Part shown: one piece after another, positions 12,041-30,528 of the stretch | How the letters are laid out: each line of letters starts with the position of its first letter | How positions within the stretch are numbered: the first letter of the stretch is position 1 | Source: Planctomycetota bacterium | GTDB taxonomy: Bacteria > Planctomycetota > UBA1135 | Direction: 5' to 3' | Assembly: GCA_004295085.1 (NCBI GenBank) | Contig: SHNF01000006.1 | Coordinates: forward strand, 287,675-351,674 | Length of the DNA: 64,000 nucleotides | Notes under the pieces: model-generated | What the model saw: only the letters and a program-made list of their open reading frames with translations | Database searches by the model: none | Told to the model about the DNA's origin: nothing | Made by a program: the position numbers and the translations under genes

Positions 12041-12976
12041 ATGAAACCTGTCCTCCTTACCCTCTCCCTCATTGCCGGGGTGGCCCTGGCCGGGGGCGCC
12101 CGCGCCCAGGACCAGGCCGATCTCGTCAAGAAGCGCGACGAGAAGCTGGCCAAGCCGTTCGTCGCGCACGGCGGCTGGATCACGGACTACGACCAGGCGC
12201 GCGAGCAGGCGCAGAAGGAGGGCAAGCCCATCTTCGTCTACTTCACGCGCAGCTACGCGTATTGACCGCCCTGCGAAGCGCTGGAGAGTGGTGCACTCTC
12301 CACCCCGGAGTTCGCGGCGTTCACCAAGAAGGTCGTGCCGTTCCTGCACGTCACCACGCGCATCGAGGGCGTCAAGCATGACGGCCTGCTGTCCGAGAAG
12401 GGCGGCCGCGGCTTCCCGACGCTCATGTTCCTGGACGCCGAGGGCAGCATCCTGGCCCAGCAGGAGGACCGCGCGGTCACGGGCTTCGAGACCACTCTGG
12501 AGAACGTCAAGACTTACCTCGACCTGAAGACGCGCCAGGCCAAGGGCGAGAAAGGCCTGGAGCTGCCGCTCTTCATGGCCGAGCTCAAGCTCGGCCTCAT
12601 GAGCTACCAGGATGCCAAGTCCAAGGCCGAGACCTTCCAGAAGCTGAGCGAGGCGGAGAAGGCCCAGATCGCGGAGGCGTTGTTCGACCTGGAAGTGCGC
12701 CAGCTCATGGACGCCTTCAATCCGCGCTCGGAGGAGGGCAAGGCCGCGGCCGCGAAGCTGGTGGAATACGCCCAGGCCGGCAAGCAGCCGTCACCGGCGC
12801 TGCGCCTCAATTACTGGGGCCTGCTCAGCTACATCGCCACGGAAGTGAACAAGGACCCCGACCTCCTGGAGAAGTGCCTCACCAACCTGCGCGCCCTTCC
12901 GGAGAGCAAGGACTTCGAGGAACAGCTCCAGCAGATGGAGCAGAAGCTCCAGGAGATGCGCAAGGGCGAACCGTAA
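12041..12976 (+). CDS. periplasmic thioredoxin-fold protein with predicted selenocysteine (TGA 12263-12265) in a U-P-P-C redox motif, plus a C-terminal helical domain
   Basis: Listed ORFs 12041..12265 and 12335..12976 are in the same frame and are interrupted only by TGA. Read-through gives KPIFVYFTRSYAY-U-PPCEALESGALSTPEFAAFTKKVVPFLHV, which is the position of the first Cys of CxxC in thioredoxin-like proteins. Signal peptide MKPVLLTLSLIAGVALAGGARAQ. A SECIS-like hairpin follows. Confidence 0.7.
12282..12302 (+). promoter_or_regulatory. candidate bacterial SECIS hairpin
   Basis: Stem GGAGAGU (12283-12289) / ACUCUCC (12295-12301) is a perfect 7 bp (plus U12282-A12302). The loop is GGUGC. The stem starts 17 nt after the in-frame UGA. 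Confidence 0.55.
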
Positions 12977-27474: not shown

Positions 27475-28911
27475 ATGGACGTCCATGAGTTCCGGGAGGC
27501 GGGGCACCGCGCGGTGGACGCCATGGCGGATTACCTGGCCGGCATCGAGGAGCGGCGCGTGTTTCCCGCGGTCACTCCGGCCGAGATGGAAGCGCTGTTC
27601 GACGCGCCGCTGCCGCGCGCAGGCATGCCGCTGGCGCAGGTGCTGGAGCAGGTGGAAGCCAGGCTCATGCCCAACTGCACGCACGTGGGCCATCCGGGAT
27701 ACCTGGGTCTGATCACCCCTTCGCCCGCGCCGGCGGGAGTGCTGGGCGACTTCATCGCCGCGGCGCTCAACCAGAACATCGGCGCCTACAGCATCGGGCC
27801 GGCGGCGGTCAGCCTGGAGCGGCGCGTGGTGCGCTGGCTGGCCGACCTCGTCGGCTTCGGGCCCGAGGCCGGCGGGCACCTGACCAGCGGCGGCATGCTG
27901 GCCAACCTGACCGGCCTCAAGCTGGCGCGCGACGCGGTTTCCGGCAATCGCGTGCAGCACGAAGGCGTGCGCGGCCCCAGCGGCGTGTACGTGTCCGAGG
28001 AGCGCCACGTGTCGGTGGACAAGTCCCTGGACGCGATCGGGCTGGGACGCGACAGTCTGCGCGCGCTGCCGACCGACGACGCCTACCAACTGCGCCTGGA
28101 CGCGCTGGAGCAGGCGATCACGCAGGATCGCCGGCGCGGGGTCCGTCCGCTGGCGGTGGTGGCGATGGCGGGCACGACCAACACCGGCTCGGTGGACGAT
28201 CTGGCCGCCATCCGCGGGATCTGCGACCGCGAGAGTCTATGGATGCACGTGGACGCGGCCTACGGCGGCGGAATGCTGCTGTCCAGGGCGCATCCCGGCG
28301 TCCTGGACGGCATCGAGCGCGCCGACTCGGTCACGATCGATCCGCACAAGTGGTTCTACGCGCCGCTGGACGCGGGCGCCATCCTGGTGCGCGACGGCGC
28401 GCAGCTCACGCGCTCGTTCGGGATCAAGCCGCCGTACCTGACCGACGAGCTGGACGCCGCCGGCGAGCGCTTCCAGTACTACGTGCACAGCCTGGAGCAG
28501 TCGCGCCGCTTGCGCGGGCTGAAGGTGTGGATGAGCTTCCAGCGCTACGGCAGCCGCCAGATCGGGCGCTGGATCGACGACAACGTGGCCGTGGCGCGGC
28601 GCCTGCACGATCTGGCCGCCGCCAGCCCGGACTTCCGCTCGGCCACGCCGCCGCGCATGTCCGGCGTGTGCCTCCGATACGAGTGCGGGCTGGACGAGCG
28701 GCGCTCGGCCGCGCTGCATGCGCGCGTGGCCCAGCGCATGGAGACGCTCGGCCGCTTCTGGTTCTCGACCACGGTCATGAAGGGCGTCACCTTCTTCCGC
28801 GTCAACGTCGTCAACTTCCGCACCCGCCCCGAGCACATGGACGAGCTGTTCGCGCTGCTGCGCGCGGAGTGCGTGCGCGCTCACGACGCGCTGGCCGCCG
28901 CACGCCCGTAG
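27475..28911 (+). CDS. group II pyridoxal-phosphate-dependent decarboxylase (aromatic-amino-acid / diaminobutyrate decarboxylase-like)
   Basis: HPGYLGLITPSPAPAGVLGDF, HLTSGGMLANLTGLKLAR, MHVDAAYGGGMLLS, DSVTIDPHKWFYAPLDAGAILV. Confidence 0.85.
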   Translation: MDVHEFREAGHRAVDAMADYLAGIEERRVFPAVTPAEMEALFDAPLPRAGMPLAQVLEQVEARLMPNCTHVGHPGYLGLITPSPAPAGVLGDFIAAALNQNIGAYSIGPAAVSLERRVVRWLADLVGFGPEAGGHLTSGGMLANLTGLKLARDAVSGNRVQHEGVRGPSGVYVSEERHVSVDKSLDAIGLGRDSLRALPTDDAYQLRLDALEQAITQDRRRGVRPLAVVAMAGTTNTGSVDDLAAIRGICDRESLWMHVDAAYGGGMLLSRAHPGVLDGIERADSVTIDPHKWFYAPLDAGAILVRDGAQLTRSFGIKPPYLTDELDAAGERFQYYVHSLEQSRRLRGLKVWMSFQRYGSRQIGRWIDDNVAVARRLHDLAAASPDFRSATPPRMSGVCLRYECGLDERRSAALHARVAQRMETLGRFWFSTTVMKGVTFFRVNVVNFRTRPEHMDELFALLRAECVRAHDALAAARP

Positions 28912-28934
28912 CGCGCGCCCGGAGCGTGCGTCCG

Positions 28935-29612
28935 CTAGCCGAAGCGGTCGGCCTGCGGGTCCCAGAACGGGCCGTGCAGCCCGATCCCGGCGAAGATGCG
29001 CCGCATCTCGTCCGGGCCTGGGCGGCGCGCCTCCGGGCTGAGGCGGTTCTCGTACCAGGCCAGCGCCAGCCGCCATAGCTGCTCCAGGCTCACCAGCGGG
29101 CGCCTGGGCCGGCCGCGGGCCGCGCACCACTGATCCACCATGTCTTCCGACCGGAAGAAGGACATCGTGCTTCAGGTGTAGACGATGTCGTCCCACCAGT
29201 GGGCCGCGGGCACGGCGAAGTGGATGACGCAGGGCACGGGCTCCGGCCCGTCCCGGCCCACGCGGATGCTCAGCGGCTCCAGGCTCTGCTCGCAGCGCGA
29301 GGACACCTGGCCCGCAGCGTGCAGGGCGGCGGGAACGCCCAGCGCATCCCAGGCGCAGTTGGCGAAGTACTCCTTGTCTCCGACCCGCACGCGGTGCTGG
29401 GTCTCGACCCCCGAGAACGGCGGCGCCATGCGGATGCTCTCGCCGTCGTCCTGGAGCACGAGCACGCGCCTGGCGTAGAGCCGCTGGTAGGCCGCGCGGA
29501 TCTCCGCCGCGCTCCTGCCGAGCGCGCGGGACATCTGCGTCACGCTCGGCGCGACCGCGTTCGCGGCGATGTGCCGGTAGATCGCCAGCCGGAGCTCGGT
29601 GTCCGCATCCAC
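28935..29612 (-). CDS. alkylmercury-lyase (MerB)-like protein with predicted selenocysteine (TGA, complement of 29172-29174) at the catalytic-Cys position
   Basis: Listed ORFs 29172..29732 and 28935..29165 are in the same frame, separated by TGA-AGC-ACG. YFANCAWDAL aligns with MerB YAWCALDTL (C96/D99). QVSSRCEQSLEPLSIRV aligns with RVSSHCAATGAPVSLTV. YT-U-STMSFFRSEDMVDQW aligns with SF-C-CHVHFFASVPTAEDW (C159). The GTG start at 29612 gives 225 aa, which is MerB-like in size; the upstream ATGs at 29711/29732 would overlap the divergent gene. Confidence 0.7.
29140..29165 (-). promoter_or_regulatory. candidate bacterial SECIS hairpin
   Basis: mRNA AUGU-CCUU-CUUCC-GGUC-GGAAG-ACAU. The lower stem is 4 bp, there is a 4-nt 5' bulge, the upper stem is 5 bp, and the apical loop is GGUC. 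It begins 6 nt after the in-frame UGA, with the loop about 19 nt downstream. Confidence 0.55.
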
Positions 29613-29616
29613 GCCC

Positions 29617-29637
29617 GGATTGTAGGCGGATTGTAGG
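29617..29637. repeat. tandem direct repeat GGATTGTAGG-C-GGATTGTAGG (11-nt period) in the divergent spacer; reads as two TACAAT boxes on the minus strand
   Basis: Read directly. It is unusually AT-rich for this DNA. It lies 5 nt upstream of the proposed GTG (29612) of the MerB-like gene and 43 nt upstream of the ATG (29680) of the methyltransferase gene. Confidence 0.8.
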
Positions 29638-29679
29638 AGTCGGAGGCAACCTGGGCGCGCCGGCGGCGGCCCATGGCCT

Positions 29680-30528
29680 ATGCTGGCACGCGTGGCGGCC
29701 GCGATCACCATCCTGGATGGCCCGGTCGGCACGGAGCTGGCCGCGCGCGGCGTGCCGACGCCGCTGCCGCAGTGGAGCGCGTGGGCGCTGGCGCATCGGC
29801 CGGAAGCGGTGGCGGCGATCCACCGCGACTACGCCGCCGCCGGGGCCACCGTGCACACCGCCAACACATTTCGCACGCAGCGTCGCATCTTTCCGGAAGA
29901 CTGGGAGCGCCTGGCGCGCCTGGCGGTGGCGATCGCGCGCGCATCGGTCCCGCCGCCGCAGCGCGTGGCCGGCAGCATGGCGCCGCTGGAGGACTGCTAC
30001 TCGCCCTGGCTCAGCCCGCCCGACCCCCGGCCCGCGCACCGCGCGCTGGCGCGCGTGCTGGCCGACTGCGGCGTCGATCTGCTGCTGTGCGAGACCTTTC
30101 CGCACGTGGGCGAAGCCCTGATCGCGCTCGAGGAAGCGGTGGCGGCCGGCGTCCCGTCCTGGGTCAGCTTCACCGCCGGTCCCAATGCCGACCTCCTGAC
30201 GCCGGACGAGGTGCACGCAGCGGCGCGGTCGGCCCGGGAGCGCGGCGCGGCTGCGGTGCTGGTGAACTGCGTGCCCGCCGCGCGCACCCTGGAGTTCGTG
30301 CAGGCGCTGGCCGGCGCCGGCCTGCCGTTCGGCGCCTACGCCAACGCCGGCGCGGCCGACGAGCGGATCGGCTGGAAGCCCGAGCCGCTGGCCGCCGAGC
30401 GCTACGCGCGCCTGGCGGCGCAGTGGGTGGCCGCCGGAGCCAGCATCGTCGGCGGCTGCTGCGGCACCGGGCCGGAGCACGTCGCCGCGCTCAGAAGCAG
30501 TGCGTCATGCCGTTGCTCAGCGCGGTGA
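29680..30528 (+). CDS. homocysteine S-methyltransferase family protein
   Basis: ILDGPVGTEL, HRDYAAAGATVHTANTF, LLLCETFP, VLVNC and the C-terminal zinc-site string IVGGCCGTGPEHV. Confidence 0.85.
   Translation: MLARVAAAITILDGPVGTELAARGVPTPLPQWSAWALAHRPEAVAAIHRDYAAAGATVHTANTFRTQRRIFPEDWERLARLAVAIARASVPPPQRVAGSMAPLEDCYSPWLSPPDPRPAHRALARVLADCGVDLLLCETFPHVGEALIALEEAVAAGVPSWVSFTAGPNADLLTPDEVHAAARSARERGAAAVLVNCVPAARTLEFVQALAGAGLPFGAYANAGAADERIGWKPEPLAAERYARLAAQWVAAGASIVGGCCGTGPEHVAALRSSASCRCSAR

Follow-up and report, generated by a model that had tools for sequence, protein, structure and literature searches.

Among the known relatives of the gene analysed here are the alkylmercury lyase MerB, with its catalytic triad Cys96-Asp99-Cys159, and SaoL. 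Cys159 was described as strictly conserved and essential by Christakis et al. 2021 (PMC8261052), and their mer gene census lists a single MerB for Gemmatimonadetes and none for Acidobacteria. SaoL, the 'selenocysteine-assisted organometallic lyase', is a selenoprotein that resembles MerB and bears a C-U motif (Haft & Gwadz 2022, bioRxiv 10.1101/2022.07.06.499078). It marks a nine-gene SAO locus (the ABC transporter SaoABP, SaoC, SaoE and others) found in about 52 strictly anaerobic species (10.1101/2022.07.06.499078). A MerB-like protein containing selenocysteine (Sec) is thus not new as a concept, since SaoL was published in 2022. We describe here a MerB-like gene carrying an in-frame TGA, located on the minus strand (28935-29612) of a 64,000-nucleotide stretch of Planctomycetota DNA (contig SHNF01000006.1; G+C 71.5%), referred to as the window.

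We propose that this locus is one gene whose product is a selenoprotein of 225 residues with the MerB (alkylmercury lyase) fold and with Sec at codon 147, a reading to which we give a probability of roughly 80%. A first-pass annotation, made from the sequence alone, had suggested that Sec stands in for Cys at the catalytic nucleophile of a MerB-like fold. This is now supported by a profile match, by alignments, by the presence of TGA in 81 of 81 genes and by conservation of a hairpin of the selenocysteine insertion sequence (SECIS) type. The parts of the gene are as follows.

29175..29612, minus strand: first part of the coding sequence (CDS), codons 1-146, starting at the GTG and encoding a winged-helix-like N-terminal domain together with the MerB core
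29355-29357, minus strand: codon of catalytic C86, aligning with MerB C96, invariant in the family
29346-29348, minus strand: codon of catalytic D89, aligning with MerB D99, invariant in the family
29172..29174, minus strand: in-frame TGA, predicted Sec codon 147, equivalent to MerB Cys159 by alignment
28938..29171, minus strand: second part of the CDS, codons 148-225, with the remaining MerB core and a C-terminal extension
28935..28937, minus strand: true stop TAG, as seen in sequence and translation
29140..29165, minus strand: predicted SECIS hairpin, nt 10-35 with the U of UGA taken as nt 1

The in-frame TGA in the window and in related genomes

The open reading frame (ORF) 29172..29732 closes at the TGA (29174-29172) and the same frame goes on, through AGC-ACG-ATG, into ORF 28935..29165; sequence and translation agree here with what the first-pass annotation had described. 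Read through from the GTG at 29612, the product has 225 codons (29612 to 28935, minus strand) with a single in-frame TGA. The GTG start is backed by homologues and gene callers, and a 146-aa protein 99% identical to the window protein (P0001) begins there. GenBank splits the gene into TAH38234.1 and TAH38233.1, the latter being a separate 76-aa hypothetical protein that corresponds to the second CDS part. About 40 aa of this second part make up the conserved C-terminal extension (..RLxxxxRRPxPxEMxxIFxxxGLxGxFWDP).

A search of about 5.8 billion proteins with the read-through product gave 4010 relatives. Among the 120 closest database proteins (59-99% identical), 119 are of about 146 aa and break off precisely after ..WWxDIV[YF]T. 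The only full-length one, P0002 (225 aa), carries W at the TGA site, which corresponds to a code-4 reading of TGA. When the 78 post-TGA residues were used as query, only orphan "hypothetical proteins" of 75-80 aa were matched. At the genome level, when each GTDB species was represented by one genome, at least 586 genomes contained a relative matching residues 1-225 across the stop. The TGA was inspected in the best 80 of these, which together with the window gene make 81 genes. It was found at the Sec column in 80/80 species genomes (at least 10 phyla), hence in 81/81 genes, and in the inspected relatives the frame stays open beyond it for another 74-86 codons, whose protein sequence is strongly conserved. 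The 80 loci belong to Acidobacteriota (about 25), Gemmatimonadota (18), Verrucomicrobiota (11), Chloroflexota (10) and Eisenbacteria (5), the remainder being shared by Calditrichota, Planctomycetota, Ignavibacteria and others.

The real terminal stops of the same 81 genes served as an internal control and comprise 39 TGA, 23 TAG and 19 TAA. Exclusive use of TGA at the internal column would have a P of about 2e-26 if the sequences were independent. Compared with the distribution at the real ends, TGA in 81/81 genes shows that the internal codon is no ordinary stop. Past this codon, the 81 genes differ in their synonymous codons but keep the amino acids, with purifying selection acting on both halves at the protein level.

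These data also bear on the trivial explanations, namely a pseudogene, a sequencing error or a chance juxtaposition of ORFs, for which nothing speaks but the bare stop codon. Four independent assemblies of the window organism (L081-L084) have the same TGA, as do the 80 other species, and the codons downstream are conserved under the protein-level selection just described. A wrongly read TGA, which the first-pass annotation had named as a way to overturn its proposal, is thereby set aside, and for practical purposes we regard this whole group of explanations as excluded.

Some database entries show irregularities at the site. In P0002, P0247, P0255 and P0280 the Sec codon is rendered as Trp, apparently because genes on short contigs were called under code 4, and such full-length 'W' forms could be taken for real variants. 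P0250, P0415, P0416 and P0296 are frameshifted near the Sec region and represent assembly errors or decaying copies.

MerB fold, catalytic positions and Cys-form homologues

With the TGA written as Cys in the query, the window protein matches PF03243 (Pfam MerB) with 105.6 bits against a cutoff of 27 (E = 2.4e-30). The match spans the TGA (residues 66-188) and takes in the whole 126-position profile. The alignment to PRK13239 extends over residues 5-192. A phmmer search against PDB sequences retrieved MerB2 (5C17, E = 4e-7) and MerB (3F2G, 1S6L and others). In these residue-level alignments ANCAWD pairs with AWC96ALD99 of MerB, VSSRCEQSLEPLSIRV pairs with VSSHC117AATGAPVSLTV, SSRCEQ standing opposite SSHC117AA, and YT-[TGA]-STMSFF pairs with SF-C159-(C/S)HVHFF. 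The three motif matches given in the first-pass annotation are therefore reproduced against PDB MerB sequences, the MerB family is recovered by a profile search across the TGA, and the TGA falls on MerB C159. The three catalytic positions of MerB are taken by C86, D89 and U147, none of which varies within the Sec clade.

The fold was examined by modelling P0002, a homologue with W at the Sec column and 59% identity to the window protein, in AlphaFold2 on a 58-sequence alignment. This model (mean predicted local distance difference test score, pLDDT, 96.6; predicted template-modelling score 0.92) places the post-TGA segment confidently in one domain, with a chain that is continuous through residues 143-153. 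It replaced a run with an alignment of N-terminal fragments only, in which the C-terminal half was poor (pLDDT 69). Foldseek searches of the PDB with the P0002 model gave significant matches to MerB and MerB2 only (11 chains, E 3e-11 to 5e-8, template-modelling scores 0.5-0.7). Below these, weak matches to winged-helix N-domains (DtxR/MntR) were obtained.

Homologues carrying Cys give an independent view of the site. With P0002 as query, 1.84 billion cluster representatives yielded 1885 relatives; the best 150 of them include 73 truncated at the site, 24 full-length proteins (220-240 aa) with Cys and 3 with W. In total, 44 Cys forms were present among the proteins retrieved. In an alignment of 20 full-length sequences, the Sec column reads T-C and the alignment is continuous through the UGA point. 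Cys forms are 31-43% identical to the Sec form over residues 1-218. Within the sample, about ten of them are nearest to a Sec form and not to another Cys form, and the two kinds are interspersed, which suggests repeated Sec/Cys exchange. The Cys forms named 'alkylmercury lyase family protein' (for example P0391-P0394, P0409, P0436, P0507; 220-240 aa) have the same architecture as the Sec form, including a similar C-terminal extension (..WY..R..P.WR....EA...F...GLT..FW). Unlike the Sec clade, they often have the Asp replaced (CAWC, CIWG, others), and the FFRSEE stretch, which doubles as the putative SECIS in Sec forms, is relaxed. By database names, no Cys form has been experimentally characterised.

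Additional cysteines are found upstream of the site. An extra Cys lies 15 residues before Sec (..WLFHCxVPAA..) in 64% of Sec forms, at the column of window F132. The window lineage has ..PCVIHFAVPAA.. instead (C128), so that two sub-branches place the additional Cys differently.

The hairpin 3′ of the UGA and predicted selenocysteine decoding

In the window, the hairpin begins 6 nt after the TGA, carries a GGUC loop, both as first reported, and folds with a minimum free energy of -12.1 kcal/mol. RNAalifold on the 81 sequences gave a 7-bp helix in which nt 16-22 pair with nt 27-33 from the U of UGA (29142-29159), with the apical loop GGUC at nt 23-26 (29149-29152). Standard pairs occupy 98.4% of cells, compared to 46-71% in controls in which the 3′ partners were slid by 1-3 columns. 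At the loop-closing position, C-G is replaced by A-U in L007, L027 and L044, which are assigned to three different taxa, and at the outermost position 6-7 sequences have C-G instead of U-A. The loop variants GGUC, GGAG, GGGA and GUUC all start with G. Across the family, the hairpin consensus is CUUCUUCC-GGUC-GGAAGA(A/G).

Constraint at the RNA level is also apparent in the 81-gene codon alignment. Synonymous sites are frozen from F152 to E156 (TTC 73/73, TTC 81/81, CGG 78/80, TCG 78/80, GAA 71/81). Elsewhere they are mostly free, as for F130 (TTC 38, TTT 20), R171 (five codons) and S126 (six codons). The frozen sites and the compensatory changes speak for the fdhF-like SECIS that had been suspected from the hairpin and its loop. 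The case for this predicted element rests on comparative sequence data, which are strong.

Like the E. coli fdhF SECIS, the window hairpin lies within the coding region directly 3′ of the UGA. The GGUC loop of fdhF (K-12 genome) is at nt 22-25 after the U of UGA140, and here at 23-26; three family members even have the closing pairs CA/UG of E. coli fdhF. The stem sequence is different (CUUCUUCC/GGAAGA(A/G)) and, unlike in fdhF, a clearly conserved bulged U was not identified in the family hairpin.

An AUG (Met150; window 29163-29165, minus strand) is found three codons past the UGA in 80/81 Sec-form genes, whereas Cys forms have I, M, L or V at this position. This conserved AUG is the reason why a 76-aa ORF is called by gene finders. 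Residue 148, when Ser, is always encoded by AGC (38/38), and the base following UGA is never U. The AUG, AGC and non-U biases may reflect a decoding-context effect or a Met close to the Se site.

One could therefore consider a split gene, with a 146-aa protein ending at the UGA and a separate 76-aa protein starting from the AUG, the pieces of which may or may not assemble. The near-invariant AUG and the annotation of two ORFs by all gene callers and GenBank would fit such an arrangement. However, it would remove exactly the catalytic nucleophile, and it faces an internal stop that is TGA in 81/81 genes compared to 48% TGA among ordinary stops of the same genes. Neither the Cys-form relatives, which run continuous through the UGA point, nor the AlphaFold2 chain, continuous across residues 143-153, show a boundary there, and a fdhF-like SECIS at the right distance, with constraint at the RNA level, argues against it as well. 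We consider a split gene very improbable. Read-through or reassignment of UGA to Trp, Cys or Gly without selenocysteine seems more improbable still. Some pipelines did give W under code 4 (P0002, P0247, P0255), but UGA is a frequent ordinary stop in the window and ends 39/81 of the same genes in relatives, so that the genetic code is not reassigned. The conserved hairpin with its G-first loop is moreover a signal of the SelB type, and a tRNA-Sec adjoins the gene in one relative.

This tRNA-Sec was found by ARAGORN in a Chloroflexia metagenome-assembled genome (MAG), at L058 7172-7267 (minus strand), about 500 nt downstream of the MerB-like gene, and scores 58.6 bits with Rfam RF01852 against a gathering score of 47. 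It is the only case, 1 of 80 loci, with Sec machinery nearby. The window itself carries a second candidate selenoprotein gene at 12041-12976 (plus strand), with a TGA at 12263-12265 in a U-P-P-C redox motif; it is probably what the first-pass annotation counted as its candidate 1. Its product has a signal peptide and a Thioredoxin_7 domain (PF13899, E = 1e-11). About 20 nt downstream of this TGA lies a hairpin, GGAGAGUGG-UGC-ACUCUCC, with z = -0.7 against shuffles. The L058 tRNA-Sec and the Thioredoxin_7 candidate provide indirect support for Sec decoding. A third in-frame TGA occurs at window 55406 (plus strand; ..LSDPARW-TGA-GVDPEPAEG..), with coding-like G+C at third codon positions on both sides; it may simply separate two adjacent genes in the same frame.

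Several observations weigh against Sec insertion at codon 147. Taken alone, the window hairpin is only modestly more stable than shuffled sequences (z = -1.77), and covariation rests on two pairs because most stem positions are invariant. Rfam returned no SECIS family, either for the whole window at the gathering cutoff or for 28900-29300 at E <= 10, where only noise was obtained; since we are not aware of an Rfam model that covers bacterial SECIS in general, we take this result as uninformative. The AUG three codons past the UGA would also permit re-initiation. E. coli SelA, SelB and SelD, used as tblastn queries, matched nothing in the window or in any of the loci, and no selA, selB, selD or tRNA-Sec was found in the window or in the flanks of 79/80 related loci. 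Consistently, ARAGORN reported no tRNA in the 64-kb window, and Pfam searches of nine further window ORFs of SelA/B/D-like size gave no SelA, SelB or SelD. With no Sec machinery in the window, Sec decoding in this particular genome is a prediction.

Proposed chemistry and comparison with MerB and SaoL

The gene is flanked by the following genes.

29680-30528, plus strand: homocysteine/selenocysteine S-methyltransferase family gene (PF02574), divergent, 67 bp from the MerB-like start
27475-28911: pyridoxal phosphate-dependent decarboxylase gene, convergent with the MerB-like gene

The pairing with PF02574 was seen only in contigs of the window organism and not in the other loci examined. When neighbour ORFs within 5 kb of the 81 loci were clustered all-against-all, no conserved neighbourhood emerged: no family occurred in more than 5 loci and, beyond these small clusters, only antisense shadows of the MerB-like gene itself were obtained. 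Five Pfam-annotated neighbourhoods, including that of the window, are mutually unrelated and consist of housekeeping genes. As the neighbourhoods are all different, context offers no functional clue, and the family is stand-alone and chromosomal.

In the mechanism we propose, UGA codon 147 would be decoded as selenocysteine under the direction of the SECIS hairpin inside the CDS, presumably bound by SelB with Sec-tRNA(Sec). Sec147 (at the MerB Cys159 site), Cys86 (C96) and Asp89 (D99) would then rebuild the MerB catalytic triad. On the model of MerB, the selenolate of Sec147 and the thiolate of Cys86 may coordinate the metal or metalloid of an organometallic substrate, while Asp89 would protonate the leaving carbon, resulting in protonolysis of the carbon-metal bond. 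Organomercurials are the default guess for the substrate. As there is no mer operon, it is just as possible that the protein acts on another organometal(loid) or serves a housekeeping detoxification independent of mer, and the missing MerA, the stand-alone chromosomal context and the change from Cys to Sec make such alternatives conceivable too. A conserved C163, in a W-C pair, could assist product release.

Alternatively, the protein could be a selenoprotein of the MerB fold that is not a carbon-metal lyase and that binds or traffics a soft metal, metalloid or selenium species, whether as a chaperone, a sequestration or redox protein, or a sensor regulating transcription via the winged-helix-like N-domain. 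This would agree with the lack of a conserved operon partner and of MerA, and with weak winged helix-turn-helix matches of residues 5-67 (HVO_A0114, LexA_DNA_bind, and GntR in some homologues), to which the weak Foldseek matches to DtxR/MntR N-domains can be added. One Cys form is named a GntR family regulator by NCBI, and Asp is lost in several Cys-form relatives (NCIWG, SCAWC, NCAFC), indicating that catalysis is not universally conserved in the wider superfamily. On the other side, C86, D89 and U147 are invariant in the Sec clade, and Sec is normally retained for catalysis and not for passive binding. As judged by the PRK13239 alignment, MerB, itself an enzyme, has a homologous N-terminal domain, and for this reason the regulator idea ranks low. 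On balance a non-lyase role seems quite unlikely to us.

The proposed lyase chemistry has its own counterweights. MerA, MerR, MerT, MerP and SAO genes are absent from the neighbourhoods examined. The NCBIfam equivalog MerB models NF009710 and NF033555 are not reached (67.4 bits against 193 and 52.7 against 200, respectively) and, with scores so far below the cutoffs, any organomercurial lyase activity is putative. We also infer that a Hg-Se bond would hinder product release more than in MerB.

Whatever the substrate, databases systematically mis-annotate the family, as a 146-aa "organomercurial lyase" or hypothetical protein without its nucleophile, plus a 76-aa orphan, and GenBank records still split it (for example "MAG TPA: organomercurial lyase", 146 aa). 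We expect that merB surveys requiring Cys159 would discard these proteins. The inspected TGA carriers (best 80 of at least 586) come mostly from phyla with little or no MerB in the published census.

A wider proposal, which we put forward tentatively and with the odds against it, is that dominant phyla of soils and sediments widely possess, in this family, a demethylase that depends on selenium but not on a mer operon and acts on methylmercury or another organometal(loid). The current scoring of Acidobacteriota, Gemmatimonadota, Verrucomicrobiota and Chloroflexota as phyla without merB would then result from truncation of the gene at its Sec codon. If true, this would connect the cycles of selenium and mercury through an enzyme and account for part of the unexplained 'merB-independent' demethylation. 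Most of these soil lineages are taken to be aerobic. The family would extend to abundant soil lineages the Sec-assisted organometallic chemistry proposed by Haft & Gwadz for a rare system of anaerobes. The near-fdhF character of the SECIS means that heterologous expression may work, allowing a comparison of Sec and Cys in carbon-metal bond cleavage.

Compared to canonical MerB (EC 4.99.1.2; 3F0P/3F2F, MerB2 5C17), the family has the same fold, a homologous N-terminal domain and the Cys96 and Asp99 equivalents. The strong Foldseek matches behind the shared fold have E 1e-8 to 3e-11 and template-modelling scores of 0.6-0.7. It also keeps the Cys equivalent to C117 (SSRCEQ here, SSHCAA in MerB) and the FF motif after the nucleophile. 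It differs by Sec (UGA) in place of Cys159, by the lack of Cys160, by a C-terminal extension and by an identity of only about 20%. The triad Cys96-Asp99-Cys159 is thus not present as such, the third column being UGA, although its function may persist. The mer context (merA, merR, merT/P) is absent, the commonest neighbour cluster occurring in only 5/81 loci.

No model specific to the family exists in NCBIfam release 20, and SaoL is the sole MerB entry in a May 2026 table of selenoprotein families of prokaryotes (PMC13188914). The family is therefore uncatalogued within the literature searched, beyond which other papers could exist. With SaoL it shares Sec at the MerB Cys159 equivalent and the retained Cys96 and Asp99 equivalents (for SaoL, see 10.1101/2022.07.06.499078), as well as the PF03243 fold, truncation at UGA in databases and a chromosomal location not on a mer plasmid. 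The window protein nevertheless does not reach the SaoL model NF040728 (50.4 bits against a cutoff of 140, over residues 7-118 only). SaoL has C-U where the present family has T-U, Thr preceding Sec in 81/81 genes, and about 50 residues after Sec compared to about 78 here, which include the extra conserved C-terminal segment. SaoL is encoded in the nine-gene SAO locus of strictly anaerobic Firmicutes, spirochaetes and deltaproteobacteria. The present family, without SAO or any conserved neighbourhood, is hosted by Acidobacteriota, Gemmatimonadota, Verrucomicrobiota, Chloroflexota, Planctomycetota and others, represented by soil and water MAGs. With relatives in at least 586 species genomes (the best 80 inspected for TGA) against about 52 species reported for SaoL, it is distinct from SaoL and much larger.

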